Source: Candidatus Latescibacterota bacterium
GTDB taxonomy: Bacteria; Krumholzibacteriota; Krumholzibacteriia; WVZY01
Direction of reading: 5' to 3'
Assembly: GCA_963791045.1 (NCBI GenBank)
Contig: CAWBQK010000006.1
Location: 288,001 to 352,000 of the forward strand
DNA: 64,000 nt
Of this stretch, positions 4,131 through 47,652 are shown one piece after another; the first letter of the stretch is position 1; each line of letters starts with the position of its first letter. Under the pieces are notes generated by a model. The model saw nothing but the letters and a program-made list of their open reading frames with translations, was not told where the DNA came from and ran no database searches. Both the position numbers and the translations under genes were made by a program.

Positions 4131-4190
4131 TCCGGCCCGGTTCGTTCAAGTGTTGCGTCCGCAAAGCGCTGATCAGTGTGAGGTGTCCGA

Positions 4191-5021: not shown

Positions 5022-5210
5022 TCCACTTCCAGGCTGCCCCCTTCCTTCCTGTGCCCGTTCCGATCCGTCCCCCACGCAACTTAGCCTGCGGCAAATACGT
5101 AGTAATTATCAGCGTCAGACGGTTCATTTATAATCTTGACACAAAGACGGGTATCGGGCATATAAGAATAAGAATTCGTGTTCTGGTATCTGGCTTTTCT
5201 GTCTGAAAGG

Positions 5211-5915: not shown

Positions 5916-5986
5916 TGCGGTATTTGTTGTTATAACAGAACCCGAATACTAGTTCGTAATTGTGGTGCTCTGACACCCAGGATTCG

Positions 5987-27354: not shown

Positions 27355-27390
27355 TCTCGTTTGTGCGTGATCGAAGATACGGAAATTGTC

Positions 27391-28827: not shown

Positions 28828-29666
28828 GCGACCACCCCATAACGAACCGGGTCCTCCCCCATCGTTATACTTCTTCGATAATAGACAAAAAAGAATTGAG
28901 CGCGCGGTATTACCTCGTGGTTCTTGATCGGCCGCGGGGTTTTCCTGATCCGGGCGCGGGAACATTCATTCATTTGCTGCTCCCCAACCCGCGCGAAGAC
29001 GGCGCGGCGGGCAGGTTTTTTCTCAGACGGCCGTTCAGTATCCTGGACTGTGACGGCAGGACGTTGTCGCTTCTCATTGTCGAGAAGGGGGCGGGTACAC
29101 ACCTTCTTCGCCAGATCCCTTGCGGAACAAAACTCGATTTTATCGGTCCATTGGGGAGCGTGTTTCCCGAACTACCCGGGCGGAAGGTGCTTGCCGTCGG
29201 CGGAGGTGTCGGTCTGGCGCCGTTGTATTTCTATGGAGCGGCGTGGACGACGGCGGTGTGCGATGAGTATCGGTTGATTTACGGTGCGCGGACACGGAAC
29301 GATCTTTTTCTCGATGCGTTTGACTGGCGTGTCGATGGGGTGAAATTTTCGACGGATGACGGAAGTTTCGGAATGAAGGGCGACGTTGCCCAGCTGGCCG
29401 CGGAAGAGATCGAGGGCTCGAAGTATGACGCGATTTTCTCATGCGGACCGACTCCGATGCTGAAGTCAGTGGACGAGGTTGCCCGTTCGAACGGGATCAC
29501 TCATTATGTGTCTTTGGAAAACAGAATGGCGTGTGGTGTTGGGGCGTGCCGGTCCTGCGTCGTGTTATGGAAGGGCGGAGGGCTGGAAGAATACAAGACT
29601 GTGTGTCATGACGGGCCCGTGTTCAACGCGGATGACCTCGTCTGGGATAAACTCCCGGAAATTTGA
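28824..29666 (+). CDS. pyrK: Dihydroorotate dehydrogenase electron-transfer subunit
   Basis: LRRPFSI, GPLG, GGGVGLAP, TDDGS, CGP.PML, MACGVGACRSC...VCHDGPVF [2Fe-2S] motif. Confidence 0.93.
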   Translation: MSDHPITNRVLPHRYTSSIIDKKELSARYYLVVLDRPRGFPDPGAGTFIHLLLPNPREDGAAGRFFLRRPFSILDCDGRTLSLLIVEKGAGTHLLRQIPCGTKLDFIGPLGSVFPELPGRKVLAVGGGVGLAPLYFYGAAWTTAVCDEYRLIYGARTRNDLFLDAFDWRVDGVKFSTDDGSFGMKGDVAQLAAEEIEGSKYDAIFSCGPTPMLKSVDEVARSNGITHYVSLENRMACGVGACRSCVVLWKGGGLEEYKTVCHDGPVFNADDLVWDKLPEI

Positions 29667-29677
29667 GGGTAAAGAAA

Positions 29678-30580
29678 GTGAAACAAGATAACGCAAACGA
29701 TCTCGAACTCCGCATCGGTCCGGTGAGCTTCCGCAACCCCGTGTTTCTCGCGTCCGGTATCTGTGGGTATGGAGAGGAATATTCGTCACTCATCGATATC
29801 GAGGCGATCGGCGGCGTTGTTACCAAGACGATAACGATCCGCCCGCGGATGGGAAATCCTCCGCCGCGGATCCACGAACTCCCCGCGGGTGCGCTCAACA
29901 GTATCGGCCTCGAGAACGTCGGACTCGACGTCTATGTGGCGGAGAAACTCCCGGCGCTAAATAACAAGAACGTCGATGTGATCGTCAGTGTCGCCGCCGA
30001 ACACGTTGAAGAGTTCGAGCAAATTGCCGAAGCGTTCGCCGGCGTCGATGGGTACAAGGGAATCGAACTCAATCTGAGCTGTCCTAATGTCGAAGAGAAA
30101 TCTCTCGATCACGGCCGAAATCCTGAATTTGTCAAACGCATCACGAGCATTGTAAAAAAACGGATTCCCCACCGTGCGCTTCTTGTCAAGATAACGCCCA
30201 ACGTAACCGACATCGGCAGCGTCGCGCTGGCCGCGCAGGAAGGCGGCGCCGACGGGATCTCGGCGATAAACACGCTCATCGGAGTTGATTTCAACCTCGA
30301 GACGGGAAAACCGATTTTCTTCCGCGGTAGCGGCGGTTATTCCGGCCCCGGGATCCTTCCGATCGCGCTCCAAAAAGTGTTAGAGGTGTCACGGGCCGTG
30401 ACGATTCCAATTATGGGGATGGGTGGAATCAGTTCCGTAGATGACGCGAGAAAGTTTTTTATCGCCGGGGCTTCGGCCGTGCAGATAGGCACGTCGCTGT
30501 GGCAGGACCCGGATCTTCCCGCGCGGATCATCGAGACGTTCTCAGCACATCCCGAATACATGAGGAAAGGACCGTACTAA
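29678..30580 (+). CDS. pyrD: Dihydroorotate dehydrogenase family 1B catalytic subunit
   Basis: NPVFLASG, GNPPPRI, NSIGLEN, ELNLSCPNV, VKITPNVTD, INTL, GGYSG. Confidence 0.95.
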   Translation: MKQDNANDLELRIGPVSFRNPVFLASGICGYGEEYSSLIDIEAIGGVVTKTITIRPRMGNPPPRIHELPAGALNSIGLENVGLDVYVAEKLPALNNKNVDVIVSVAAEHVEEFEQIAEAFAGVDGYKGIELNLSCPNVEEKSLDHGRNPEFVKRITSIVKKRIPHRALLVKITPNVTDIGSVALAAQEGGADGISAINTLIGVDFNLETGKPIFFRGSGGYSGPGILPIALQKVLEVSRAVTIPIMGMGGISSVDDARKFFIAGASAVQIGTSLWQDPDLPARIIETFSAHPEYMRKGPY

Positions 30581-30582
30581 TC

Positions 30583-31293
30583 GTGATCAGTGAAGCCGGC
30601 AAAAAGCTCATCGTTGCGATCGATGTCAAAAGCTATGACGAGGCGGCTGCGCTCGTCGAATCGCTTACCGGACTCGTGGGGTGGTTTAAAATCGGGAGTG
30701 TTCTTTTTACGCGCGAAGGGCCAAGAATTTGCCGGCTGGTAAAGGAGTCGGGCGCGGGGCTTTTTCTCGACTTGAAATACCACGATATTCCGAATACTGT
30801 ATCCGGAGCCGTGCGGGCGGCGTGCGATATTGGCGCCGATATGCTCACGGTTCACCTTTCCGGCGGAGAGGCGATGCTCGAAGCGGCGGTCAAGGCGAAG
30901 AACGACGCCGGCCGTGACGAGATGATGATAGTCGGGGTGACCGTATTGACCCATTTGACTTTCGACGATTTTCATTCGCTTTTTGTGAGCGACCGCCCGA
31001 AGAACGAGACGGTCCTTGCATTTTCCAAACTCGCGGGACGCGCCGGCCTCGAAGGGGTCGTGGCGTCGGCGCTGGAGCTTCCGCTCATTCGGCGGCACAT
31101 GGGTCCCGACTTTACCGTGGTTACGCCAGGCATTCGTATGGCGGATGCCGCGAAGGATGACCAGGTCCGCATCGTGACACCGGGTAAGGCGATCGCGACG
31201 GGAGCCAGTTATATCGTTGTGGGGCGGCCGATTATCGCGGCGGATGATCCCCGCCTGGCCGCTCGCAAGATCGTTGAAGATATGACCGTTTGA
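30583..31293 (+). CDS. pyrF: Orotidine-5'-phosphate decarboxylase
   Basis: FKIG, FLDLKYHDIPNTV, VTVLTH, VTPGIR, DDQ.R, VVGRPI. Confidence 0.96.
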   Translation: MISEAGKKLIVAIDVKSYDEAAALVESLTGLVGWFKIGSVLFTREGPRICRLVKESGAGLFLDLKYHDIPNTVSGAVRAACDIGADMLTVHLSGGEAMLEAAVKAKNDAGRDEMMIVGVTVLTHLTFDDFHSLFVSDRPKNETVLAFSKLAGRAGLEGVVASALELPLIRRHMGPDFTVVTPGIRMADAAKDDQVRIVTPGKAIATGASYIVVGRPIIAADDPRLAARKIVEDMTV

Positions 31294-33752: not shown

Positions 33753-33781
33753 TTGACTTTACTTGCATTTTCACGTAACCT
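33753..33781 (+). promoter_or_regulatory. Putative sigma70 promoter of the nucleotide-sugar cluster
   Basis: TTGACT-17 nt-TAACCT about 30 nt before the ATG at 33814. Confidence 0.5.
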
Positions 33782-33813
33782 TATGCGGTTCAAAAACGAC
33801 GAAAGGGTTGCAA

Positions 33814-34764
33814 ATGAAAGTTCTCATAACCGGAATCACCGGGTTTGCGGGGAGCCATCTCGCTGACTATTGCCTGGCACGCGGCGGGATGGACGTGTAC
33901 GGGATTGTCCGCTGGCGGAGCCGGACCGAAAATATCGAACATCTTTATAACGACGTGAAATTTGTCGAATGCGACCTGCGTGACGCGTCATCGACGCGTG
34001 ACGTTATCGACGATATCCGTCCCCACTATATCTTTCATCTGGCCGCTCAGAGTTTTGTCCCGACGAGTTGGCACGCGCCGACCGAGAGTCTGACGACAAA
34101 TGTGATCGGGCAGCTTAACATTTTTGAGGCGGTCCGCAAAATCGATCTCAAGGCACGAATTCAAATTGCATGTTCGAGTGAAGAATACGGGATGGTCGCG
34201 GAAGACGAACTTCCGATTACCGAAGATTCGCCGCTTCGCCCGTTGAGTCCGTATGGGGTGAGCAAGGTGGCGCAGGATCTCCTCGGATACCAGTATTACA
34301 TGAGCTACAAAATGGACATCGTCCGTACGCGGGGATTCAACCACACCGGGCCCCGCCGAGCGCCTGTATTTGTCGTTTCCGATTTTGCAAAGCAAATAGT
34401 AGAGGTGGAAAAGGGTCTGCGCGAACCGGTGCTTTCCGTGGGAAATCTCGACGCCGAGCGTGATTTCACCGATGTCCGCGACATGGTGCGGGCGTATTTC
34501 CTGGCCCTTGAGAAGGGCAAGAGCGGTGAGGTGTACAATATCTGTTCGGAGACGTCGTGGAAGATCCAGACGATGCTGGACAAGCTGATCTCGCTGACAA
34601 CGGTCAATATCGAAGTCAAAACCGATCCCGCCCGTCTTCGCCCGTCGGACGTCCCGCGGCTACGCGGTGACTGTTCGAGGTTCAAGAAGGACACCGGTTG
34701 GAAACCGGAGATTCCCTTCGACAAGACTCTTCAAGACATGCTCGATTACTGGAGAAATCGTTAG
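33814..34764 (+). CDS. GDP-sugar SDR (GDP-mannose dehydratase / Rmd reductase family)
   Basis: TGITGFAG, HLAAQSFV, CSSEEYG, YGVSK, FNHTGPR, GNLDAERDFTDVRD. Confidence 0.85.
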   Translation: MKVLITGITGFAGSHLADYCLARGGMDVYGIVRWRSRTENIEHLYNDVKFVECDLRDASSTRDVIDDIRPHYIFHLAAQSFVPTSWHAPTESLTTNVIGQLNIFEAVRKIDLKARIQIACSSEEYGMVAEDELPITEDSPLRPLSPYGVSKVAQDLLGYQYYMSYKMDIVRTRGFNHTGPRRAPVFVVSDFAKQIVEVEKGLREPVLSVGNLDAERDFTDVRDMVRAYFLALEKGKSGEVYNICSETSWKIQTMLDKLISLTTVNIEVKTDPARLRPSDVPRLRGDCSRFKKDTGWKPEIPFDKTLQDMLDYWRNR

Positions 34765-34774
34765 GAGCGACACG

Positions 34775-35731
34775 GTGAGCCGGGTGCTGGTGACAGGTTG
34801 TGAAGGGTTTGTCGGACCTTACGTCGTCGACGCGCTTGCGCGCGGCGGCCACGAGGTTTGGGGAACCGACATCAAAGAGACGTCTCGACGTCTCGAAGAC
34901 GCTCGCTATGCGGTAGCCGATCTCTGCGACCAGCGCGCCGCGAAGGCTCTGCTCGAAGAAATAGAACCGGACGCGGTTGTTCATCTTGCCGCGCAGTCGA
35001 GTGCGGCAAGGTCGTTTGGAGAGCCGTTCGTCACCGTGACACAAAATTTGCTCCCCGTCCTCAGTCTTCTCGAGTATGCAAGAACTCGAGCCGGCGGGAT
35101 GCGTATCCTTGCCGTGGGGTCTGCGGATATATACGGGCCTGTGAATCCGTCGGATATTCCGCTCAAAGAGACACTCCCGCCCAACCCGGTAAACCCATAC
35201 GCGTTGAGCAAGGTGTTCCAGGAACGCTGCTGCGTTCAATACGCAAGTTTGTACGGGATCCAGGCGGTGATGACGAGGAGTTTCAACCACACGGGGAGCG
35301 GTCAGCGCGACATTTTCGTGCTCCCGAGTTTCGCCAGGCAGGTTATTGAAATCAAAAAGGGGCTGAGGGAGCCGGTGGTGACGGTCGGCAATGTGGATGT
35401 CAGGCGTGATTTCAGCGACGTTCGGGATGTAGTCGCCGCATATGCGCTGCTTCTCGAACGCGGTCGCCCGGGAGAGATGTATAATGTGTGCTCGGGCGAA
35501 TCGCACAGTCTGCGCGATCTTCTCGGGACGTTGTGCGCGCTCGCGGGAGTGGGTCCCGAGATCAGGGTTGACCCCGAGAGAATCAGGCCTGTTGACATGG
35601 AGGAACTTCGCGGAGACAAATCGAAGATTGTGTCGGATACGGGGTGGGAGGCAAAATTCACGATTGAGGATACCATGAAGTCGCTTCTTGATTTCTGGGA
35701 AGAAGAAATCGGGTCCGGCGGCGCGAACTAG
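34775..35731 (+). CDS. GDP-4-keto-6-deoxymannose reductase (Rmd)-like SDR
   Basis: TGCEGFVG, HLAAQS, GSADIYG, YALSK, FNHTG.GQ, RDFSDVRD; AGGAG RBS. Confidence 0.8.
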   Translation: MSRVLVTGCEGFVGPYVVDALARGGHEVWGTDIKETSRRLEDARYAVADLCDQRAAKALLEEIEPDAVVHLAAQSSAARSFGEPFVTVTQNLLPVLSLLEYARTRAGGMRILAVGSADIYGPVNPSDIPLKETLPPNPVNPYALSKVFQERCCVQYASLYGIQAVMTRSFNHTGSGQRDIFVLPSFARQVIEIKKGLREPVVTVGNVDVRRDFSDVRDVVAAYALLLERGRPGEMYNVCSGESHSLRDLLGTLCALAGVGPEIRVDPERIRPVDMEELRGDKSKIVSDTGWEAKFTIEDTMKSLLDFWEEEIGSGGAN

Positions 35732-35771
35732 AAATTTAACGGAGAAATAACACCACTACGGAGGAAACAGA

Positions 35772-37109
35772 GTGATACGAGTTTGTATGATCGGAACAGG
35801 GTACGTCGGGCTGGTTTCCGGTTCCTGTCTCGCCGACTTTGGAAACACGGTCAGATGCGTCGATATAGACGCCGCCCGGATAGATATGCTAAACGACGGC
35901 GGAATACCGATTTACGAGCCGGGGTTGAAAGAAATGGTCGCGAGAAATGTCGAGAGCGGAAGACTTACATTTGCGACTGACCTCGCCGACGCGGTCAAAA
36001 ACTCGGACGTGATTTTTGTCGCGGTGGGTACTCCGCCTCGGCCCGATGGTTCAAGCGACTTGTCATATGTATACAACGTCGCGGAATCCGTGGCGAAGTA
36101 CCTGGACGAGTACAAAGTCATCGTGTCCAAGAGCACCGTGCCTGTTGGGACGACACGCGAGGTTGCCGCCTATATCAAAGAACGCGCGCCGGAGGGCGCC
36201 GAGTTCGACGTGGTGGCGAACCCGGAATTTCTCCGCGAGGGATCGGCCGTCGAGGATTTCATGCGGCCAAACCGCGTGGTTATCGGCGTCGAATCGGACA
36301 GGGCGATGGAAATGATGAAGAAAGTCTACCGTCCGCTCTACCTGATCGAGACTCCGATCGTTTTCACCGACCTCGAAACAGCCGAGCTGGTCAAGTATGC
36401 GAGCAACGCGTTTCTTGCGACAAAGATCTCTTTTATTAACGAGATCGCGGCGATAAGCGAACTCGTCGGGGCGAATGTCGATGATGTTGCCAAGAGTATG
36501 GGCCTCGACCAGAGAATAGGTTCGAAATTTCTCCATGCCGGTGTGGGTTTTGGCGGGTCGTGCCTGCCCAAAGACATTTCATCGCTCTACCATCTGGCGG
36601 TGTCGAAGGGGTACGAACCCCGGATCGTCGGCGCGATTTCGGATCTTAACAAAGCGCTCCCCGCAAAAGCGGTCCAGAAGGTGAGAGACGAAATCGGTGG
36701 TCTCGAGAGCAAAACCATTGGAATCCTTGGGCTTGCATTCAAACCCAATACCGATGATTTGCGCGACGGCGCGGCGACGAGCATCATCACCGAGCTGCTC
36801 GAAGAGAAAGCGCATGTCCGTGTGTTTGATCCCGTGGCAATGGAGAACTTCGAGAAAACATATAAGTTTCCGATCGACTACTGTAAGAGTTCGTACGAGG
36901 TGGCGGAAGGATGCGACGCGCTCATGCTCGTGACCGAATGGAACGAATTCAGACAACTCGATCTGCCGAGGCTCAAAGAGCTGATGCGCCGGCCGATTTT
37001 TATCGATTGCCGCAATGTTTACAAACCGCAGAGAATGATTGATGCCGGATTCCGTTACCGCTCTTTTGGACGCGGAATTGAACGGCAGGGAAAAAAGGAG
37101 AACAAGTAA
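35772..37109 (+). CDS. ugd: UDP-glucose 6-dehydrogenase
   Basis: GTGYVGL, KSTVPVG, NPEFLREG, KYASNAFLA, GFGGSCLPKD, FKPNTDD.R. Confidence 0.93.
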   Translation: MIRVCMIGTGYVGLVSGSCLADFGNTVRCVDIDAARIDMLNDGGIPIYEPGLKEMVARNVESGRLTFATDLADAVKNSDVIFVAVGTPPRPDGSSDLSYVYNVAESVAKYLDEYKVIVSKSTVPVGTTREVAAYIKERAPEGAEFDVVANPEFLREGSAVEDFMRPNRVVIGVESDRAMEMMKKVYRPLYLIETPIVFTDLETAELVKYASNAFLATKISFINEIAAISELVGANVDDVAKSMGLDQRIGSKFLHAGVGFGGSCLPKDISSLYHLAVSKGYEPRIVGAISDLNKALPAKAVQKVRDEIGGLESKTIGILGLAFKPNTDDLRDGAATSIITELLEEKAHVRVFDPVAMENFEKTYKFPIDYCKSSYEVAEGCDALMLVTEWNEFRQLDLPRLKELMRRPIFIDCRNVYKPQRMIDAGFRYRSFGRGIERQGKKENK

Positions 37110-37567
37110 TGATCGATGGCGTCATTGTCAAAAAGCTCAAACTCATTCCGGACGAGCGCGGTTACCTGATGGAGATGTTGCGGGCCGACGATCCGTTTTT
37201 TCAGAAGTTCGGGCAGGTATACCTCACCGTGGCCTATCCCGGCGTCGTAAAAGGGTGGCACTATCACAAAGTCCAAACGGACCATTTTGTCGCCGTGTCG
37301 GGGATGGTCAAGGTGGTTCTCTACGACAGCCGGAAGGAGTCAAAGCACATACGGAGAGGTGAACGAGTTTTTCATGGGTGAACATCAACCCGATGCTTCT
37401 TGTCATCCCGCCGATGGTGGCGCACGGGATGAAAGGCGTTGGCACGAAGCCGGGGATGATCATCAATTGTCCGACAGAAGTCTACAAATACGACGATCCC
37501 GACGAGCACAGGATCGACCCGCACAACAACGATATTCCGTACGACTGGGAACGGAAAGAGCAGATAG
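37109..37567 (+). CDS. rfbC: dTDP-4-dehydrorhamnose 3,5-epimerase-like cupin (apparent single-base insertions)
   Basis: DERGYLME, PGVVKGWHYH, then YGEVNEFFMGE and LLVIPPMVAHG...IPYDW in shifted frames. Confidence 0.8.
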
Positions 37568-37577
37568 GAGGGTGTCC

Positions 37578-38616
37578 GTGGCAGTCCTTTAAGAAGATTC
37601 TTGTGAGCGGCGGAGCAGGGTTTATCGGTTCCAACTTTATTCATTACATGCACGCACGTCACGGCGATTGCCGGATCGTCGTCCTCGACGCGCTTACCTA
37701 TGCGGGTAACCTCGAGAACCTCGCCGGTCTCCTCGACGGTGGGCGTGTCGAATTTGTAAAGGGATCGATATCGAACCCCGATATCGTCCTGAAGGCGATG
37801 GAGGGTTGCGACGCGGTGTTCAATTTCGCCGCGGAAACACACGTCGACCGTTCGATCCGCGAGGCGGCGACATTTATCGATACCGATGTTAACGGAACTT
37901 ACACGATGCTTCGCGCCGCCTCGGAATTGGGAGTCAAGCGGTTCATCCAGGTGTCGACCGACGAGGTCTACGGGAGTTCCGCGGGCGAGTATTTCACAGA
38001 ATCGTCGCCGCTCAAACCGGGCAATCCGTACTCGGCGAGCAAGTGCGGTGGCGACCTGATGTGCCAGGCCTTCTTCAACACCTTTGATGTTCCTGTGGTT
38101 ATCACCCGTAGTTCCAATAACTTCGGGCCGTTCCAGCATGTCGAGAAATTCATTCCCCTATTTATCACCAATACGATAGAAGGAAAGGAACTCCCGCTCT
38201 ACGGCGATGGGCGGCACGAGCGCGATTGGATCTTCGTCGAAGACAACTGCTCAGCGATAGAAGCGGTTGGGCTTCGCGGCGAGCCGGGCGAAATCTACAA
38301 CATCGCCGTCGGTCAGAGCCGTCCCAATATCGAGGTGGCGGAGATCATTCTCGATTTCCTGGGGGCGCCGAGATCGCGGATCGTTTTCATTGAAGACCGC
38401 AAGGGGCATGACCGCGCCTATCTCATGGACAGCTCGAAAACCGAAAGTCTTGGCTGGAAGCCGGAGTCTGATTTCAAAACCGCCCTCGAACGCACCGTTG
38501 CGTGGTACAAGGACAACGAGGAGTGGTGGCGGCGGGTCAAGTCCGGCGCGTTCCGCGAATACTACGACAGTCACTATTCGGACAAATTGAAAAAAGGCAA
38601 ATCGCATGGCGTATAA
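37578..38616 (+). CDS. rfbB: dTDP-glucose 4,6-dehydratase (apparent insertion near the start)
   Basis: GGAGFIGSNF, DALTYAGN, FAAETHVDRSI, STDEVYG, YSASK, RDWIFVED, DRKGHDRAY; GGAGG before the GTG at 37578. Confidence 0.9.
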
Positions 38617-39695
38617 AGTTGTCGCCGTGGTGGGGGCCCGGCCGAACTACATGAAAGTCGCCCCCATCTGGCGTGAACTCGACAAGCACGATCACGTATC
38701 GAAACGTCTCGTCCACACGGGACAGCATTATGATCGCAACATGTCGAAGGTTTTCTTTGACGACCTCAAGCTGCCAAAGCCCGATGTGTTTCTGGGCGTC
38801 GGTTCGGGTTCGCACGGCGAACAGACCGGCAAGGTAATGACCCTGTTCGAAAAAACGCTTGTTCGTGATCGCCCCGACATCGTCATCGTCGTCGGGGATG
38901 TGAATTCGACAATGGCGGGGACACTCGTCGCGGTGAAAATGGGGATCCCGGTGGCCCACGTCGAGGCGGGCTTGCGGAGTTTTGACCGTGAGATGCCCGA
39001 AGAGATCAACCGGATGGTCACCGATATTCTCGCCGGGCTTTTGTTCACATCCGAGCGCGGAGCCGAGGAGAATCTTCTGCGCGAGGGCGTTGACAAGGAC
39101 AAGATCCACTTCGTCGGCAACGTGATGATCGACAGCCTCAACTTCTACCGGCCGATGGCGGAGAAATCGACGGTTCTCGAGGACCTCGCGCTGGAGCGGG
39201 GAGGTTACGGACTCGTTACCCTGCACCGTCCGTCCAATGTCGATCGACCCGGAAAGTCTCCGGGGCATCCTGGGGGCGCTCACCGAGCTCGGAGCCACAT
39301 GTCCGCTCGTTTTTCCCGCGCATCCGCGGACTCGTAAGATTATTGAAGACAATAAGATAGATATCCCTCCCCAAAATATCCAAATTTTAGATCCCATTGG
39401 GTACCTCGATTTTGCTAAGTTAATGATGTACTCGCGCATCGTTCTCACCGATTCAGGAGGTATTCAAGAAGAGACCACTGTGCTCGGCATTCCGTGTTTG
39501 ACGATTCGGGAAAACACAGAGAGGCCAGTCACCATCGAGATCGGTACCAACCGGCTCGTCGGTGTCTCTCCCAGGCGGATTCTCGAAGAGGGAATGGACG
39601 TTCTCTCTCGCGGTCCGAAGGAAGGGAGAGTTCCCGAATTATGGGACGGTAAGACCTCTCAACGAATTGTTCGCGTGATCAACGAGTATCTATGA
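38606..39695 (+). CDS. wecB: UDP-N-acetylglucosamine 2-epimerase, non-hydrolysing (one apparent frameshift near 39245)
   Basis: GARPNYMK, HTGQHYD, GDVNST, HVEAGLRSFD..MPEEINR, TLHRPSNVD; second frame HPRT...TDSGGIQEE...RENTERP...LWDG. Confidence 0.9.
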
Positions 39696-41200
39696 ACGCA
39701 CCCAAAGCGAGCTGGTCTTTTCAGAATACGTCACTCGAGCGTAGCTTCATCTGGAGTCTTGCCATCACCGCACTGCCCGTAATCACGGGCTTCGTCGTGT
39801 CGTGGGTAATCGCGCGGTGGGCCGGTCCCTCGGTCGTTGGAACGGTGTCATGGGTGATGTCGTTCGCCACCACGCTTCTTATTCTCGCCAAGTTTGGTTT
39901 GGACCTGGCGACATCGAGATTGGCCAGTGAATACGGTGTGAAATCGCCCGGGAAGCTTCGCGCGCTTTTTCGCGCCGGGTTTGGCCTGCGGGCGGCGCTC
40001 ACATTTGTCGTGTCAATGAGCGCGCTTATATTCGCCCCGCAAATCGCGACGTTTTTCAACGACGCCGATCTTACCGCTCCGGTCCGCGTCGGCGCCGTCA
40101 TTGTAGTGTGCGCGAGTTTCTACGAATTCAAAGAAAACTTTCTGATCGGTCTCAACAGATTTAAAACCGTTTACAAGGTGCGGAGCCTCCATCTGTCACT
40201 TCGCATTGCTCTGACTATGCTGCTCGTTGTAACCGGCGCCGGCGCGACGAAGATTCTCGGCGGCTACTGTATCGCCTGGGTGATTGCGATCGTGGTGTAC
40301 GCCCTCCTGCTCTACAGGTTTTTGCCGCACGCCGATTCGCTGCCCGGGCCCGACGACCATTTCGGGCGTCTTGTCCGGATGAGCCTGGCGCTTGCGGTCA
40401 GCGGCGCGTCAGTGACGATTTATTCGCACATGGACAGGCTCATTCTCGGGTACTTCTCCGGCGTGGCGGAGGTGGGGCAGTACACAGTGGCGAGGAATAT
40501 CACCGAAGTGTCGCTTTTCCCCGTTTTCGCGGCGATGATGATGTTGCGGCCGGCGCTTGCATCGAGGTTCTCGACGGATGGGGTCGGGGAGTGCTCCAGG
40601 ATTATTCGCAACACCCTGAGGTTCGCGTTTGTGTCTGGAATCCTTTTCTGCTCGGTTTTTGTGGTTCTCGGCGCGCCCCTCGTCACGCTGGTTTTTTCGG
40701 AAGAGTTCGCTTACTCGGGGCAGCTGCTCGTCTTTTTTGTGGGAGTCATCGCTTTAAGGTCGCTGGGCGCGGTGATCCTCCCCGCGCTGATCGCGGCCGA
40801 ACGAACCCGATTGTACGCGTATTTGACTACCGCGTCGGCAATTACGTACTTCGCGCTGAGCCTTTATCTAGTGCCGCGTTTCGCGTCGAAGGGGGCTATC
40901 GTGGCGACGGTGATTTCGTACGGTTTGATTCTCGTTCTGGGACTCAGAGAGGTTTTCTCGATTTACCAGGTCAGGATTGGATGGCGTCCTTTATCACTTT
41001 TTTTTCGCACGATTCTTGCTGGAGCGATGGCGAGCGGCATTACGTGGCGGATTGTTGGACGATCGCCCGCCAACTGGACTGTGATCCCGTGGGCGCTGCT
41101 CATATCCGTTCTCTATCTAATTTTGATATTTGCACTTCGAGTTGGCAGTTTCAGCGAAGTTAAGGGTCTGCTGACTAACATGAAGCAAACAAATAAGTAA
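39692..41200 (+). CDS. Polysaccharide flippase (Wzx/MOP family)
   Basis: About 12-14 hydrophobic segments, D.LILG.F....VGQY motif, position in a sugar cluster. Confidence 0.85.
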   Translation: MNAPKASWSFQNTSLERSFIWSLAITALPVITGFVVSWVIARWAGPSVVGTVSWVMSFATTLLILAKFGLDLATSRLASEYGVKSPGKLRALFRAGFGLRAALTFVVSMSALIFAPQIATFFNDADLTAPVRVGAVIVVCASFYEFKENFLIGLNRFKTVYKVRSLHLSLRIALTMLLVVTGAGATKILGGYCIAWVIAIVVYALLLYRFLPHADSLPGPDDHFGRLVRMSLALAVSGASVTIYSHMDRLILGYFSGVAEVGQYTVARNITEVSLFPVFAAMMMLRPALASRFSTDGVGECSRIIRNTLRFAFVSGILFCSVFVVLGAPLVTLVFSEEFAYSGQLLVFFVGVIALRSLGAVILPALIAAERTRLYAYLTTASAITYFALSLYLVPRFASKGAIVATVISYGLILVLGLREVFSIYQVRIGWRPLSLFFRTILAGAMASGITWRIVGRSPANWTVIPWALLISVLYLILIFALRVGSFSEVKGLLTNMKQTNK

Positions 41201-41212
41201 CAGTTTTCCCGC

Positions 41213-41241
41213 TTGACAGGCCGCAAATGGCCAGATATCGT
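41213..41241 (+). promoter_or_regulatory. Putative sigma70 promoter
   Basis: TTGACA-17 nt-TATCGT upstream of the WecA-like gene. Confidence 0.5.
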
Positions 41242-41286
41242 CCACCTTGAGCGGGAGGGATTGAACAAAAAGTGTTAGGAGGAGGC

Positions 41287-42372
41287 TTGGCTGGTCTTCA
41301 CGCATTGGTGGCGTTTTCGCTTTCGTTCGTCGTGGTTGCTGCGTCGACGCCAATCATCAGAAGATACGCGCTTCAGTGGAAACTCGGTGACAAGCCTAAC
41401 GGGCGGAAGATCCACACGAGCACTATTCCGCACCTTGGTGGTATCGGGATGGTCATCGGTGTATTCGGAAGCCTCGGTGTTGTGGCCGGCTTCCTGGCCG
41501 CGCCCGGCTCCGGCCTTTCCGGATTCCTCCTCAAGATTCTGATCCCCGTGCTGATGGTCGCCGCGCTGGGTGTCACCGATGACACCAAGAATCTGCGGGC
41601 GAGCCAGAAACTCGCCATCCAGACTCTGGCCTCGATAATCATTGCCGTGTCGGGCATCCATCTTCTCTCCGGTATCCCGGCATTGGATTCGCATCTGATG
41701 TTCGTGATTATTCTGACAACATTCTATCTCGTTGGTATTTCGAGCTCGGTAAACCTCATCGATGGCCACGACGGATTGGCCGCCGGTGTGACGTGCATCT
41801 CGGCGATCGCGTTTGGCTTGACGGCGTTTCTTCTCGACGCCCCGGTTCTCGTTTGTACGTCGCTTGCCGTCGCCGGGTCATGTTTGGGATTTCTTCTTTA
41901 TAATTTCCCCCCAGGCAAGATCTTCATGGGCGATACGGGCAGTCTTTTTCTTGGAATCATTCTCGGCATTCTCGCTTGTTCGGTTACGATGCTCGCCCCC
42001 AGCGTGAATACATTTTTCGGTGTTTGTTTTATCCTCTCGATCCCGATGCTCGATTCGTGGCTCGCGATCGCGAGACGCGTCGCGCTGCGACGACCGGTGT
42101 TTGAGGCGGACTGCATGCACATACATCATGTGTTGAGGTCTTTTGGTTTCTCTCCTCGCAAGACACTCGTGATTCTCTATTCGATGCAGGCCGTGATGGC
42201 CGTGTTTGGTGTTCTTGCCATCAAGGGGTTTGTTTTTCCGATCATCGCCGGGCTCGCGTTCCTGCTCCTCGTCTTCGTCGCTTTTTACAGGATGATGGTG
42301 GTGTCGAAAGGGACTCAGCCTGAGTTGTCTTCGGAATTTGTTCCCGGTTCGATCCCCTCTCTTGAGAAGTAG
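41287..42372 (+). CDS. wecA: Undecaprenyl-phosphate GlcNAc-1-phosphate transferase (WecA/MraY GT4 family)
   Basis: DKP..RKIH..IPHLGG, G..DD, NLIDGHDGLA, YNFPP.KIFMGDTGS, D..HIHH; AGGAGG RBS. Confidence 0.88.
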   Translation: MAGLHALVAFSLSFVVVAASTPIIRRYALQWKLGDKPNGRKIHTSTIPHLGGIGMVIGVFGSLGVVAGFLAAPGSGLSGFLLKILIPVLMVAALGVTDDTKNLRASQKLAIQTLASIIIAVSGIHLLSGIPALDSHLMFVIILTTFYLVGISSSVNLIDGHDGLAAGVTCISAIAFGLTAFLLDAPVLVCTSLAVAGSCLGFLLYNFPPGKIFMGDTGSLFLGIILGILACSVTMLAPSVNTFFGVCFILSIPMLDSWLAIARRVALRRPVFEADCMHIHHVLRSFGFSPRKTLVILYSMQAVMAVFGVLAIKGFVFPIIAGLAFLLLVFVAFYRMMVVSKGTQPELSSEFVPGSIPSLEK

Positions 42373-42411
42373 TTACAGCACTAGAATCCCTTCCGCGCGC
42401 GTTTTCCCCCG

Positions 42412-42440
42412 TTGACGATGACGGTCTTGTGTGGTATTTA
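42412..42440 (+). promoter_or_regulatory. Putative sigma70 promoter of hemC-like/serS
   Basis: TTGACG-17 nt-TATTTA with an extended -10 TG. Confidence 0.5.
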
Positions 42441-42492
42441 TTAGTCCACTCAGGTGTCGCGTTTTTTCCGCCCATACGTCGGGAGTTCGACC

Positions 42493-43416
42493 GTGCCCAC
42501 GATGACCCGCTGCCGGATCGCGAGTGACGTTGACTATCTCTCCAAGCTTGAGTTGGAAGAAGTAGCGCAACGGCTCAAGGAAGAGGCGCCAAAGCTTTCG
42601 GTCGAACAAGTTGTTTCGGAAGACGAAAAATCCGGCGCCGGCAGTCGCGACACACCGAATTCGCCGTCGCGTGTCGCCGGTTTGATGACGGGATTGCTCG
42701 AAGAACAATTCGATGCAATTGTTGTCAACGCCGCTTACCTGCCTTCGAGACTTCCAGCGGGTTTGACCCTCGGTGCGATCACCAACCGGCTCACACCTTT
42801 TGATGTTTTGATATCCGAATCCGAGCGTCTTCTCGACGAATTGGTTTCGAACGCCGTCGTCGTGGCGAACGACGCTCGCCGCGAAGCGCAGCTCTTGTAC
42901 TATCGGCCGGATCTCAAGATCGTTAAATCAAGAGGCAGCGTCGATTCGATCATCCAGAAGGTGAAAAACGAGAAGATCGATGGAGCCGTTCTGGCCGCCA
43001 GCGATGTAGAGCGGCTTCACAAACAGGATCATGTTGTCGAGTTTCTTACTTGTTCTATTTGTATTCCCGCGGCCGGCCAGGGTTCACTGGCTGTTCTCGT
43101 ACGGTCGGACGAGGACCTGGTCAAGAAAGCCATCCACGGGATCAATCACCCCGCTTCTTATGGTGAAATCATCGCCGAATGGGCCTTCCTCGATCATCTC
43201 AAAGTGACCGAGAACATGCCGGTGGGCGTCCTCGGAAGCATCGAGGGCAAGGCGCTCGAGCTCGAAGGGATGGTCGCGTCGGCGGATGGTCGCGAGAGAA
43301 TCCATTCGGTCGTCAAGGGGTCGGTTGGGCACGAGGTCGAATTGGGACAGAAACTTGCGCAAGAGGTTCTCGAAGCGGGTGGACAAGAGTTATTGCGCGA
43401 GATGAACCTCCATTGA
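42493..43416 (+). CDS. Porphobilinogen deaminase (HemC)-fold protein lacking catalytic residues
   Basis: Collinear with HemC (LP..LP.GL.LGAI..R, RREAQL...RPDL, RG.V, D..VLA....RL, PAAGQG.L, AE.AFL, LG..LA..L...G) but without VHSLKD and GGC. Confidence 0.8.
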   Translation: MPTMTRCRIASDVDYLSKLELEEVAQRLKEEAPKLSVEQVVSEDEKSGAGSRDTPNSPSRVAGLMTGLLEEQFDAIVVNAAYLPSRLPAGLTLGAITNRLTPFDVLISESERLLDELVSNAVVVANDARREAQLLYYRPDLKIVKSRGSVDSIIQKVKNEKIDGAVLAASDVERLHKQDHVVEFLTCSICIPAAGQGSLAVLVRSDEDLVKKAIHGINHPASYGEIIAEWAFLDHLKVTENMPVGVLGSIEGKALELEGMVASADGRERIHSVVKGSVGHEVELGQKLAQEVLEAGGQELLREMNLH

Positions 43417-43447
43417 TTCCCCTTACATTCCCAGGAGAAAAATAAAA

Positions 43448-44716
43448 GTGTTGGACCGCCGTCTAATTCGCGATGCCCCGGAACGGGTTATCGAGGGAGT
43501 TAAGTCCAAAAACGTTGATGTGGATATCGACAAAGTGATTGCTCTCGACCGTCGGCTTCTCGACAACATGCGGGAGAGCGAAGAACTCAAACACGAGAGA
43601 AACGTGAAGAGCGAAGAGGTTGGGGCGAAGAAAAGGGCGGGGGAGAATGCAGATGAGCTTCACGCATACCTGAAGGAGCTTTCCCGGAAGATCAAGGATT
43701 TCGAGGCAAAAGACAAAGAGATTACCGCGGAACTGGAAGCCTTGCTTCTTACGATTCCCAATCTACCGCACGAGAGCGTGCCTGTTGGCATGGACGAGAC
43801 GGGCAATGTCGTCCGCCGCGAATGGGGGGAATTGAAAGAAGAGATTTTTGAAGTCAAACCGCACTGGGAGATCGGGGAACAGCTCGGTATTCTCGATCTC
43901 GAGGCCGGGCGAAAAATATCCGGGCGCGGCTTTATCGTTTTTCGGCGGGATGGTGCGCGGTTGTGCCGGGCGCTGATCAATTTGATGCTCGATGTTCATG
44001 GAAAGCAGGGGTACGACGAGGTGCTCGTGCCTTATCTCGTCAATCGCGATTCGATGATTGGAACCGGACAGCTTCCCAAAATGAAAGAGGACATGTACCA
44101 TTGCGAGATCGACGACCTCTTTCTGGTTCCCACGGCCGAGGTGCCCGTGACAAACATCGACCGTGACAATTCCTTTCCGGTGGATGATTTGCCGGCCAGG
44201 TATACGGCGTACAGTCCGTGTTTTCGCCGGGAGGCGGGGAGCCACGGTGCGGACACGCGAGGCCTTCTCCGTGTCCACCAGTTCGACAAGGTGGAGATGG
44301 TCAAGATCGTGTACCCCGATAGTTCGTACGATGAACTCGAGACGTTGACGAGAGATGCCTGCGAAATAATTGAGCTGCTCGGACTCCCGTACCGGGTTCT
44401 CGAGCTTTGCTCGGGGGATCTTAGCTTTGCGGCGGCGAAATGTTATGATCTCGAAGTGTACGCGCCGGGTGTGGCGAAGTGGCTCGAAGTGTCGTCGTGC
44501 AGCAACTTTGAGGATTTCCAGGCGCGGCGCACAAATATAAAAATCAAGAAAACAAAGGGTGAAAAACACCGGTTCGTCCATACGCTCAACGGGTCCGGTC
44601 TCGCTTTGCCGCGAATCGTTGCCGCCATTCTGGAACATCACCAAACACCAACCGGAAGAATACGGTTGCCCCAGGCGCTGATTCCATATATGGGCGGTCA
44701 GGAATTTCTGGGCTGA
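43448..44716 (+). CDS. serS: Serine--tRNA ligase
   Basis: MLD, IPNLPH, GTGQLPK, PTAEVP, CFRREAG, RVHQFDKVE, EVSSCSN..DFQARR, HTLNGSGLA. Confidence 0.98.
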   Translation: MLDRRLIRDAPERVIEGVKSKNVDVDIDKVIALDRRLLDNMRESEELKHERNVKSEEVGAKKRAGENADELHAYLKELSRKIKDFEAKDKEITAELEALLLTIPNLPHESVPVGMDETGNVVRREWGELKEEIFEVKPHWEIGEQLGILDLEAGRKISGRGFIVFRRDGARLCRALINLMLDVHGKQGYDEVLVPYLVNRDSMIGTGQLPKMKEDMYHCEIDDLFLVPTAEVPVTNIDRDNSFPVDDLPARYTAYSPCFRREAGSHGADTRGLLRVHQFDKVEMVKIVYPDSSYDELETLTRDACEIIELLGLPYRVLELCSGDLSFAAAKCYDLEVYAPGVAKWLEVSSCSNFEDFQARRTNIKIKKTKGEKHRFVHTLNGSGLALPRIVAAILEHHQTPTGRIRLPQALIPYMGGQEFLG

Positions 44717-44740
44717 TACGACCAATTCAGAATCGGTACA

Positions 44741-45997
44741 ATGGGTCTTTTTTCGGATTACCGGGGAAACATACGCTTCTGGCTCAAGAGCTACCTCTTC
44801 CTGGGCGTAGCGCTCTTGATCCTGCTAGTGCTGCTCTATACAAACCGGGTTATCCAGCGTATGGAAGAGCAGTCGCAGGCAACCACCCGCCTCTTTTCGC
44901 GATTTATTGCCGAGGTGGTTCTCCAGGTCGATGATACCGGCAAGGAAAACATCCTCCAGGATGTTCTCGCGGAAATCAAACTTCCTATCATACTCACCGA
45001 CGCCGAAGGTCGCCCGTTCGCGTGGCACCGCGTGGGAATTCCGGAGCCGGCCGATGACGAGTTCGAATCTCTCTTTTTGATAGACCCCGAGAATCCGCCA
45101 CCGGGAAATATAAGCGATCTTATCGAACTCACACACAAGTTCGATTCGGCGAACGAGCCGATCCCGGTTAGTTTTGGCCCCGAGGGCGCCGTACAGGCAT
45201 ACGTCCACTTTGGCCCGTCGCGGCTGCAGAATGAGCTTCGGTTGATGCCGTTCATTCAGCTGGCGCTCTTCCTTGTTTTTATGGCAGTTGGGCTCCAGGG
45301 ATTCCGGTACCTCAAGTTGAGCGAACAGCGTTCGATTTGGGTCGGCATGGCCAAAGAGACCGCCCACCAGCTCGGAACTCCGCTTTCGGCGCTTCTCGGA
45401 TGGACCCATCTGATAAAAGATCAGGTGAGTGAAAACCGCACCGATGCCATCGCGGCATCGGTCGAAGAGATGGAAGAGGATCTAAAACGGCTGAGCAAGG
45501 TCACCGAACGTTTTAGCAAGATCGGTTCGCGCCCCGAGCTCAACAACGTAAGTGTCTCCGAAGTTCTCGACCGCACGGCTGAGTATTTTCACCGGAGACT
45601 TCCAACGCTTAAAGCTGATTCCACCCTGTCATTGAATCTCGAAGAAACACCGTTGATTCGAGGAAATGCGGAGCTTCTCGAATGGGTCTTCGAGAATCTT
45701 ATAAAGAACGGGCTCGACGCGCTCGGAGACAAAGGCGGCGGAATCGAAATTAGCACCCGTTACGATCCCGATCGAAAAAAAGTCGACGTGTTCGTCAAGG
45801 ATTCCGGTAAAGGTGTTCCCGCCTCTCATCGGGAACGTATCTTCTCGCCCGGGTTTACAACAAAGAAGAGGGGGTGGGGTTTGGGGCTGGCGCTGACGCG
45901 CCGGATCGTCGAGGAATATCACGGTGGAGATCTGCGGCTTGCCGAGTCCCAGCCGGGGAAGGGAAGCACGTTTCTCGTCCGGTTCCCGATCGCGTAG
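44741..45997 (+). CDS. Membrane sensor histidine kinase
   Basis: Two TM segments, H-box KETAHQLGTPLS, N-box ENLIKNGLDA, D.G.G, FSPGFTTK, GWGLGL. Confidence 0.93.
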   Translation: MGLFSDYRGNIRFWLKSYLFLGVALLILLVLLYTNRVIQRMEEQSQATTRLFSRFIAEVVLQVDDTGKENILQDVLAEIKLPIILTDAEGRPFAWHRVGIPEPADDEFESLFLIDPENPPPGNISDLIELTHKFDSANEPIPVSFGPEGAVQAYVHFGPSRLQNELRLMPFIQLALFLVFMAVGLQGFRYLKLSEQRSIWVGMAKETAHQLGTPLSALLGWTHLIKDQVSENRTDAIAASVEEMEEDLKRLSKVTERFSKIGSRPELNNVSVSEVLDRTAEYFHRRLPTLKADSTLSLNLEETPLIRGNAELLEWVFENLIKNGLDALGDKGGGIEISTRYDPDRKKVDVFVKDSGKGVPASHRERIFSPGFTTKKRGWGLGLALTRRIVEEYHGGDLRLAESQPGKGSTFLVRFPIA

Positions 45998-46101
45998 CAA
46001 TACCCGGTTAAAATACGGTATCCTCCTTCCCCGCGGCACCTTATATTGTCATCAGTCAGAGTTGTCGTGCGGCTTCAGCACAAATACAAAAAGGAAACAA
46101 A

Positions 46102-47652
46102 TTGGCGCAACAGCATATATTGTGGGTCGACGACGAGATCGAACTCCTCAAATCACATATTCGCTATCTCGAGGGCAAGGGCTATCGGGTGAGCACAGCG
46201 GCCAACGGAGAGGATGCGATCCGGCTTGTTGGAAGCGAGAAGTTCGACATCCTCTTGCTCGACGAGTCCATGCCCGGCAAGGGCGGTCTGGAGACGCTAA
46301 CGGAGATCAAGGATCTCGACCCCGGTCTCCAGGTCGTGATGATTACCAAGAATGAAGCCGAACAACTGATGGATGACGCGATCGGCATGCAGATCGCGGA
46401 CTATCTTCTCAAGCCGGTCAACCCGATGCAGATCCATTCGGCGTGCAAGCGGATTCTCGACTCGCACCGGCTCCAGGAAGATCGGTTTTCACAAGACTAT
46501 GTCAAAGAGTTCACCAACATCCATTCGCTCATCGAAGACGATTCGTGGGAGAGCTGGGTGACGATCCATTCCAAATTGAGCCGGTGGGATCTCGAGTTCG
46601 ATAGATTTCGCGACAGCGGGCTCGAAGACACGCACGACGACCAGAAGCAACAGACGAGCATGCACTTCAGCCGGTTCATCGAGAAACACTACCGCGATTG
46701 GGTCGCCTCCGAGGATCGCCCGCCGCTGAGTGTGGATATTTTTAAGAATTTTGTCGCGCCACAGATGAAGCAGAACGACAACGTGATGTTTATCGTCATC
46801 GACTGCGTGCGGCTCGACCAGTGGTTTATTATCGAGGAGATCCTCAGGGACGAATTCGATATCCGCAGAGATTACTACGTTTCGATTCTTCCCACCGCAA
46901 CGCCCTATTCACGCAACGCAATATTCAGCGGGCTTTTCCCCGACGAAATCGCGCGAAAGTATCCGCAGAGGTGGCTCGAGCGGTCAAAGGATGAAATCAG
47001 CAAAAACCGTTTCGAAGAATACTTTCTCGGCGAACAGATGAAGCGCCACGGATTCGACGCCACCAAAATGAAGTATTCGAAGATCTACGCCGTTCAGGAA
47101 GCCAACGAGTTGAAAAAGAAGGTGGACGCGCTGGTGTCGCTTCCGTTCAACGCGATGGTTTTCAACGTTGTCGACATTCTCACTCACGGACGAAATCAGT
47201 CGGAAATCCTCCAGCAAATCGCGCCGGATGAATCGGCGTTCCGGTCCGTGGTTCGTTCGTGGTTTTCACATTCGGTCTTGCTCGAAATTCTCAGGGCGTG
47301 TGCCCGCAAAAAAGTCCCTGTTGTAATGACCACCGACCATGGGTCGATTCTTGGACGCCGTGCGAGTCTCGTCTACGGCCGTCGTGACACGTCGACCAAC
47401 CTCCGGTATAAATTCGGCGACAATCTCAAGTGCGACGAGAAACAGGCGATCGTGACCCGCAAACCGGGCGAGTATCGTTTGCCGGCCGAATCAAAAACAA
47501 AAACCTATCTCTTTGCCAAAGAGTATTTTTATTTTGTTTACCCGACGAATTTCCGCGATTATGAGAAGCATTATCAGGGCAGTTTTCAACACGGGGGTGT
47601 ATCCCTCGAAGAGATGATTCTCCCTTGTTTAACCCTGACGCCAAAATCCTGA
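46102..47652 (+). CDS. porX: PorX-like response regulator (receiver plus PglZ alkaline-phosphatase-fold domain)
   Basis: WVDDEI...LLDE.MPG...MITK receiver; IVIDC.R.DQW, ILPTATPYSRNAIFSG, VDILTH, TTDHG, NLRYK.G, FQHGG.SLEEM; tsaE directly downstream. Confidence 0.85.
   Translation: MAQQHILWVDDEIELLKSHIRYLEGKGYRVSTAANGEDAIRLVGSEKFDILLLDESMPGKGGLETLTEIKDLDPGLQVVMITKNEAEQLMDDAIGMQIADYLLKPVNPMQIHSACKRILDSHRLQEDRFSQDYVKEFTNIHSLIEDDSWESWVTIHSKLSRWDLEFDRFRDSGLEDTHDDQKQQTSMHFSRFIEKHYRDWVASEDRPPLSVDIFKNFVAPQMKQNDNVMFIVIDCVRLDQWFIIEEILRDEFDIRRDYYVSILPTATPYSRNAIFSGLFPDEIARKYPQRWLERSKDEISKNRFEEYFLGEQMKRHGFDATKMKYSKIYAVQEANELKKKVDALVSLPFNAMVFNVVDILTHGRNQSEILQQIAPDESAFRSVVRSWFSHSVLLEILRACARKKVPVVMTTDHGSILGRRASLVYGRRDTSTNLRYKFGDNLKCDEKQAIVTRKPGEYRLPAESKTKTYLFAKEYFYFVYPTNFRDYEKHYQGSFQHGGVSLEEMILPCLTLTPKS

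Follow-up and report, generated by a model that had tools for sequence, protein, structure and literature searches.

HemC, the hydroxymethylbilane synthase (HMBS, EC 2.5.1.61) that is also called porphobilinogen deaminase, is a three-domain enzyme represented by solved chains such as 1pda, 1ah5, 5ov4 and 7aak. As listed in PMC7959689, the substrate site in E. coli numbering consists of R11, S13, Q19, S81, D84, R149, N151 and R155, the cofactor is contacted by S81, K83, D84, T127, S129, R131, R132, R155 and R176, and the E. coli D84A and D84N variants yield no product. Here we describe a protein of the same architecture and length in which most of these residues are replaced. It is encoded at 42493..43416 on the forward strand of a 64,000-nucleotide stretch of DNA (the window) from a Candidatus Latescibacterota bacterium, directly 5' of the seryl-tRNA synthetase gene serS. 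The source genome is in 21 contigs and 81% complete, and the window lies on contig C6. The original prediction had read the gene as a retained non-catalytic HemC fold, possibly a ligand sensor or binding protein. The analysis below indicates that this HemC paralogue is very probably a tetrapyrrole-independent pseudoenzyme under selection. The overall statement that we favour, at a probability of roughly 0.55, is that it serves as a non-catalytic, tetrapyrrole-independent binding protein built on the HemC scaffold with new acidic surfaces.

The homology to HemC is far beyond chance. The translation matches PF01379 (E 6.7e-33, 114.4 bits) and PF03900 (E 4.1e-9, 37.1 bits), the two domains of the HemC architecture, and solved HemC chains match it at E 1e-31. 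An AlphaFold2 model has a predicted local distance difference test score (pLDDT) of 93.4 and a predicted template modelling score (pTM) of 0.91, with disorder only in lid-loop residues 42-47, and shows the complete three-domain fold. In a Foldseek comparison with the PDB the top matches were all HemC (template modelling score, TM, 0.85-0.92; root mean square deviation 1.6-3.6 Å), and the best scores beyond HemC chains came from periplasmic-binding and LysR-type domains at TM ~0.4. The hinge motif PAxGQG, R101 and the Gln, Glu and Pro core residues are kept as in HemC, as are R131/R132 in f1 and f2, two of the families compared here (labelled f1 to f9). On the other hand, TIGR00212, the hemC equivalog model, gives the paralogue 161.9 bits, under its 164-bit cut-off, whereas the canonical copy of the same genome scores 311.5. 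A feature search of the ESM Atlas that excluded HemC families gave a best score of 0.87, to unnamed archaeal clusters, which is under the 0.9 level of a lead.

All motifs quoted in the original prediction (CRIASDVDYLS, VVNAAY, VVANDARRE, SRGSVDSII, AEWAFLDHLKVTE and PAAGQG) are in the translation, and the key-residue substitutions that it named, including the loss of D84 and C242, were all recovered on an alignment of the paralogue to 1pda, on which the E. coli residue numbering was counted. R11, S13 and Q19 are replaced by D9, D11 and E17; S81, K83 and D84 by N76, A78 and Y79; T127, S128 and S129 by A122, N123 and D124; N151, R155 and R232 by S146, I150 and W227; and the cofactor-binding C242 by E237. 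The retained residues are R131/R132 (R126/R127), R149 (R144), R176 and Q198/G199. By the residue lists in the accessible part of PMC7959689, the paralogue keeps one of eight substrate-site and three of nine cofactor-binding residues. Because it has neither the cofactor Cys nor the catalytic Asp and only one of the eight substrate-site residues, the protein, as read from its sequence, cannot be expected to act as a hydroxymethylbilane synthase. Homology to an enzyme family with loss of the essential catalytic residues, together with the purifying selection and wide retention described below, is the mark of a pseudoenzyme.

The substitutions are not private to this genome. A word-indexed search retrieved 120 orthologues of 54-100% identity, and the Asp residues at the R11 and S13 positions are present in all 114 that align there. 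Ala-Asn-Asp stands in place of Thr-Ser-Ser, and R232 is changed to Trp in 110 of the 120. The D84 position is variable (Tyr, His or Ser), and the C242 position is occupied by Glu, Asp, Gly and others, never by a conserved Cys. The lid loop of the f1 and f2 paralogues has acquired a conserved P-N-S-P-x-R motif that sets them apart from HemC. At some 45 positions, conservation reaches 90% or more in 116 f1/f2 paralogues, whereas 113 canonical HemC sequences vary there. These positions include a series of glutamates in domain 3 (E248, E253, E255, E265, E278, E288 and E300) and, elsewhere, D112, E113, E128, Y133, Y134, Q152, D168, E170, K174 and Q175. Three cysteines, C4, C184 and C187 (within window positions 42502-43062), are foreign to canonical HemC; C4 occurs in 94% and C187 in 97% of the 116 f1/f2 sequences, and C187, two residues before the PAAGQG hinge motif, is present in f5 too.

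The ratio of nonsynonymous to synonymous substitution rates (dN/dS) was calculated by the Nei-Gojobori method for 105 pairs from 15 loci. In the 22 closest pairs it was 0.04-0.21 for the paralogue, comparable to the 0.065-0.23 of SerRS in 21 of the same 22 pairs (dS was saturated in one). Close orthologues have thus neither kept the Asp and the Cys nor evolved neutrally, and these values identify the paralogue as a gene under strong purifying selection and not a decaying copy. The open reading frame (ORF) itself is intact. The longest ORF call spans 42454..43416; conservation in the upstream alignments begins at the GTG at 42493, after a GGGAG or GGGGG ribosome-binding site (GGGAG at 42479..42483, 9 nt 5' of the GTG; GGGGG/GGGAG also in loci L003 and L004). 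We take GTG 42493 as the start and 307 aa as the length because coding conservation in relatives begins there; from the ATG at 42502 the protein would have 304 aa. The ORF list and the upstream alignments thereby agree with the originally proposed coordinates and the length of about 307 aa.

A canonical hemC exists in the same genome. It lies on contig C12 between hemA and hemD with all motifs intact, and hemB is 8 kb away on the same contig. No hem gene was found among the scanned ORFs of 27361-47652 in the window, in agreement with the original prediction. To follow the two types across the phylum, we used an even sample of 121 genomes from the window's GTDB phylum, the close relatives being labelled Krumholzibacteriota or Latescibacterota by their depositors. 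The sampled genomes are incomplete, and absence is to be read as 'not found'; a match of at least 234 bits was taken as canonical grade. A HemC-family match was found in 117 of the 121 genomes. Canonical-grade matches occur in 69 of them, 63 with a low-scoring second copy too and six with the canonical copy only (five f4 genomes and G052). The low-scoring type stands alone, with neither hemB nor a canonical hemC, in 43 genomes, and five more combine it with fragmentary canonical pieces. The paralogue is present as an intact ORF in about 111 of the 121. The complete f1 genome G079 (the L003 record) carries two canonical hemC (336 and 324 bits) and two hemB besides the paralogue.

The distribution of hemB, found in 73 of the 121 genomes, tracks canonical hemC family by family: 7/8 in f1, 5/12 in f2, 1/9 in f3, 5/5 in f4, 0/25 in f5, 47/48 in f6, 7/8 in f7, 0/4 in f8 and 0/1 in f9. 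The paralogue does not follow it, being retained in 44 of the 48 genomes without hemB. Four genomes gave no HemC-family match. In G025 and G044, GT4 (a glycosyltransferase gene described below) is followed by serS after ~190 nt, which we read as a clean deletion of the paralogue; in G074 and G076 the contig breaks at serS. Because the paralogue is retained in 43 genomes that lack hemB and canonical hemC, its function would be independent of tetrapyrroles. By this gene content it is not a device for porphobilinogen (PBG) or tetrapyrroles, since it is kept where its would-be substrate cannot be made. The PBG or tetrapyrrole ligand that the original prediction implied is not supported, in view of those 43 genomes, in which the paralogue is the sole HemC-family gene, and of cleft residues that differ between families.

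The Cys is absent in all 18 paralogues taken from eight families and in locus L018, and the former active-site positions vary from family to family. The R11 position may be Asp, Arg, Asn, Ser, Lys, Val, Pro, Leu or Ala, and f3 retains VH-LKE. Only R96, P99, Q130, E170, P189, G194 and E226 are invariant across 66 paralogues; of these, canonical HemC likewise conserves every one except P99. We built a tree of 79 rows, 35 of which are Cys-less copies from the source phylum and metagenomic kin. These 35 fall outside the canonical core with a support of 95 in the Shimodaira-Hasegawa-like approximate likelihood ratio test (SH-aLRT). They include clade A (f1, f2, f5, f8, f9 and L018; SH-aLRT 96) and clade B (f3, f6 and f7; SH-aLRT 87). 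The union of A and B as one clade is not rejected by the approximately unbiased test (p 0.745), and the constrained tree was 27 log-likelihood units better than a short free search; the gene order shared by the two clades ties them independently of the tree. These comparisons identify the gene as an old paralogue that would have arisen near the base of one uncultured phylum, and not as the remnant of a local haem operon.

Other Cys-less HemC homologues were found as well. Copies in the Thermaceae (Calidithermus/Meiothermus) and in 'Eisenbacteria' are full-length and annotated as HMBS, but C242 is missing from them and D84 from some. In the tree the copy from the Thermaceae (P0204) is placed within the canonical core; it is 65% identical to the canonical HemC of Thermus igniterrae, and the Eisenbacteria copy (P0139) falls outside the core in the unresolved backbone, in neither clade A nor clade B. 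Both appear to have separate origins. The copies from cultured Thermaceae (L057-L080) have D84 changed to Tyr and no cofactor Cys, and are 64-100% conserved among themselves.

In none of the families examined does the paralogue lie in a hem locus. The stop codon at 43416 is followed by a 31-nt spacer (43417..43447) with the serS ribosome-binding site GGAGAA, in which a terminator scan called no terminator-like site, and by serS (43448..44716, GTG start, 422 aa; PF02403 and PF00587), just as originally described. SerRS in the window is of the ordinary bacterial type, and serS was found as a single copy in the source genome (one TIGR00414 match, 495 bits). The order flippase, GT4, paralogue, serS, kinase is kept in 15 of 15 close loci. 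The paralogue stands directly 5' of serS in 9/9 f1, 12/12 f2 and 8/9 f3 genomes (the exception is at a contig edge) and in the five f5, f8 and f9 genomes checked; 19 further f5/f8 genomes have a GT4-serS gap of 1.07-1.2 kb, a size that fits the paralogue. In clade A the two genes either overlap or are separated by up to 34 nt, and in f3 the spacer measures 22-97 nt. The paralogue is next to serS in none of the seven f7 genomes and in none of the f6 genomes with listed places.

The other neighbour is the glycosyltransferase family 4 (GT4) gene of WecA/MraY type, which in the window encodes 366 aa at 41272..42372 (PF00953). Its orthologue adjoins the paralogue in f1, f2, f5, f8, f9 and f7 (7/7 genomes in the last, with a 3-nt gap in two loci), but not in f3 or f6. 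In every family checked, Pfam assignments put the paralogue 3' of nucleotide-sugar or glycan genes on the same strand; these genes encode members of the UDP-glucose-dehydrogenase family, epimerases, UDP-GlcNAc 2-epimerase, DegT aminotransferase, flippase and GT4. The linkage to serS noted in the original prediction holds in six of the eight paralogue-carrying families, but serS is not the sole constant neighbour, since adjacency to the GT4/flippase sugar cluster is likewise found in six of eight. Taken with the canonical hemC elsewhere in the genome, the conserved substitutions and the low dN/dS, this linkage bears out the view that a non-catalytic HemC fold has been retained and that the gene is not broken.

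The gene had also been credited with its own promoter. A strict sigma-70 consensus scan of 42373-42492 called no promoter. A promoter-like site of sigma-70 type with an extended -10 lies at 42412..42440, with a -35 TTGACG at 42412-42417, the TG at 42432-42433 and a -10 TATTTA at 42435-42440. The pattern TTGAC-N15-TGnTAT at 42412-42437 is the sole TTGAC-N14-16-TGnTAT site in the 64-kb window, where 0.14 would be expected. In 10 of 10 aligned f1/f2 loci CGTTGAC and TGTG(C/G)TAT are invariant or nearly so and the spacer is otherwise variable; visual inspection showed comparable extended -10 elements in f5, f8, f9, L018 and two f3 loci. An individual promoter is thus upheld in this extended -10 form, not as a strict consensus site. 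The serS transcription unit of the source lineage most likely has the paralogue as its first cistron, an assignment that comes from footprinting of the conserved promoter, not from RNA. An Rfam scan of 42300-43500 found no RNA family, and thus no known leader or riboswitch.

What could such a protein do? The paralogues have undergone a marked acidic shift. Their median net charge is -14 and isoelectric point (pI) 5.0 (n = 120), as compared with +1 and 7.7 in canonical HemC representatives (n = 100), and in f6 and f7 the net charge reaches -31 to -61. The f6/f7 paralogues (L027-L031 and L042) carry C-terminal Asp/Glu-rich tails of 50-100 residues, which in f6 are preceded by a conserved LLEA(E/D)FP(E/D)GL. 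In the reading that we favour, the gene would encode a cytoplasmic protein with the full HemC fold, that is, two hinge-linked periplasmic-binding-protein-like domains and domain 3. It coexists with the canonical hemA-hemC-hemD genes in the haem-making members and persists where tetrapyrrole synthesis was lost; in the source lineage it would be transcribed from its own conserved promoter ahead of serS. The HemC scaffold and its newly fixed acidic surfaces, which would be the domain 3 Glu residues in f1 and f2 and the long Asp/Glu tails in f6 and f7, may bind a partner that is basic, be it a protein or a cationic ligand. The role would be a housekeeping one, connected with the envelope-glycan locus or with the serS operon.

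Several observations weigh against this proposal. One f5 paralogue (L036) is basic, with a pI of 8.3. The remodelled cleft is strongly conserved in f1 and f2 (D9, D11, N53-S54-P55, R57, N123, D124, R126, R127, S146, D148 and W227), a pattern no less compatible with a small-molecule site than with a protein interface. Neither neighbour is universal, the serS link being absent in f6 and f7 and the GT4 link in f3 and f6, and the gene order could mirror descent instead of function. Finally, family f4 (5/5 genomes) and genus g27 (2/2) have lost the gene and have no substitute for it, so that it is not indispensable.

The strongest rival, although we consider it unlikely, is a small-molecule binder in which the remodelled inter-domain cleft would take a non-tetrapyrrole ligand such as a UDP-sugar, a uronic acid, an amino acid or a cation, so that the protein would serve the neighbouring glycan pathway as a cytoplasmic sensor or carrier. 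Domains 1 and 2 have the fold of type II periplasmic-binding proteins and LysR effector domains (OccJ, the LAO-binding protein, TauA and the regulatory domains of OxyR and MetR), which supply the next-best structural matches. Cleft residues are kept in 114-120 of the 120 f1/f2 sequences, R131/R132 and Q198 are retained, and nucleotide-sugar or GT4 genes lie upstream on the same strand in every family checked. However, the likeness to these proteins stops at TM ~0.4 and 10-14% identity, and the additional domain 3 is HemC-specific. No signal peptide was found, strand 1 beginning at residue 3 in the AlphaFold2 model, and the cleft residues of one family are not those of another, whereas a solute-binding protein would have an export signal and a conserved ligand pocket. 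The columns invariant over 66 paralogues are, save P99, those of canonical HemC as well.

A new catalytic activity on the HemC scaffold, serving the upstream envelope-glycan pathway, is improbable. In its favour, the gene stands at the 3' end of UDP-sugar/GT4/flippase clusters in f1, f2, f5, f7, f8 and f9 and after UDP-sugar genes in f3 and f6, and several enzymes are built on a HemC-type fold, among them HisG, MqnA/D and THI5. But no new polar residue set is common to the paralogue families, and f4 retains a cluster of UDP-glucose dehydrogenase, epimerase, WecB and GT4 genes without the paralogue. In f1 and f2, moreover, a separate promoter precedes the gene, whose coupling is to serS and not to GT4. 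The f4 ORF that follows GT4 was considered as a counterpart of the paralogue and rejected, as it is related neither to the paralogue (hhalign probability 0.3%) nor to a protein of 323-326 aa in f7. That conserved f7 protein, whose gene lies 3' of the paralogue, had no Pfam or NCBIfam match, and no homologue was found in the source genome with it as the query.

Somewhat less probable still is a factor associated with SerRS, an acidic protein that would bind the synthetase, for example at its basic tRNA-binding arm, or mimic nucleic acid and so modulate serylation. The paralogue is the first cistron just before the only serS in f1, f2, f3 (8/9) and the checked f5, f8 and f9 genomes; the spacers are short, the two ORFs overlap in L036, the conserved promoter is common to both, and the protein is acidic. 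In f6 (48 genomes) and f7, by contrast, it is far from serS, f4 and g27 have serS without it, and the SerRS is of the ordinary bacterial type. A complex prediction of SerRS with the paralogue gave no answer (score 0.00, without control runs) and weighs neither for nor against binding.

There is very little room for a PBG or tetrapyrrole sensor or binder, or for an HMBS of unusual mechanism. Such a role would suit the retention of R131, R132, R149, R176 and Q198/G199 in f1 and f2; it is at odds with the 43 sampled genomes that retain the paralogue without hemB and canonical hemC, with the replacement of R11, S13, Q19, S81, D84, N151, R155 and C242 together, and with the new acidic D9, D11, D124 and E237, which line the site that binds carboxylates in HemC. 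The idea of a functionless relic, either a hemC copy in decay or the sole remainder of a haem operon otherwise lost, finds some encouragement in the public annotation as hydroxymethylbilane synthase and can practically be set aside, given intact ORFs in ~111 of 121 genomes, a dN/dS of 0.04-0.21, no hem locus in the examined families and coexistence with intact hemA-hemC-hemD in the source genome, on which ground the lost-operon version was rejected, and with canonical-grade hemC in 63 sampled genomes.

The neighbouring genes from 33763 to 47652 are likewise on the forward strand. Upstream of GT4 lie a Wzx-type polysaccharide-biosynthesis flippase (39692..41200; PF01943 and PF13440, and synteny) and, at 33763..39695, nucleotide-sugar genes assigned by Pfam to two epimerase/dehydratases, a member of the UDP-glucose/GDP-mannose dehydrogenase family, a third epimerase and UDP-GlcNAc 2-epimerase. 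The last of these, wecB-like (38591-39695), is in two frames, with the N-terminal part at 38591-39337 and the C-terminal part at 39129-39695, which is either an assembly frameshift or a genuine pseudogene. A tetratricopeptide repeat (TPR) protein, pyrK and pyrD, in the window also pyrF (27361-31293), are found close to both the paralogue and the sugar cluster in f1, f6 and f7 with differing orientations (L027, L028, L030 and L031), which makes the whole region an old syntenic block. Downstream of serS, Pfam identifies a histidine kinase (44741-45997) and a response regulator with a PglZ domain (46102-47652), which follow serS and the kinase, respectively, in close relatives too. The PglZ domain fused to the response regulator is alkaline-phosphatase-like, and the fusion is conserved among relatives. 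In L018 (36% identity; 3910-5946) the serS frame seems broken or fused, its N-terminal part lying inside a 630-aa ORF and its C-terminal part opening an ORF that runs into the kinase.

In concept, the nearest precedent may be HisZ, a HisRS paralogue that has lost catalysis and regulates HisG. The likeness would be one of a dead housekeeping-enzyme paralogue kept for a binding or regulatory role, not one of sequence, as the protein family differs. A full-text literature search, which did not cover subscription journals, returned no paper on a HemC-derived pseudoenzyme; the one paper with both 'HemC' and 'pseudoenzyme' concerns a TrpC-TrpF protein.

Compared with HemC, then, the paralogue is acidic, lacks the cofactor Cys and the catalytic Asp, occurs without hemB and keeps company with serS and glycan loci instead of hem genes. 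Public annotation routinely calls this family 'hydroxymethylbilane synthase', a label by which haem-less genomes would be mistakenly assigned a tetrapyrrole step and metabolic reconstructions of an uncultured phylum distorted. The gene offers a clean natural case in which an enzyme fold has been kept over more than 300 residues and its active site rewritten differently in each lineage. As a core gene linked to serS it should be open to expression and direct testing, and the degenerate HemC of the Thermaceae, being found in culturable organisms, may be tractable as well. A much bolder idea, to which we give a low probability, is that throughout the phylum the HemC 'polymerase' scaffold has been turned into a regulator, acidic and non-catalytic, co-expressed with the sole serS at the edge of an envelope-glycan locus. 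One possibility is that such a regulator acts as a nucleic-acid or tRNA mimic, or as an adaptor that couples translation capacity to envelope synthesis. If true, tetrapyrrole metabolism would have given rise to a pseudoenzyme of a new functional class.

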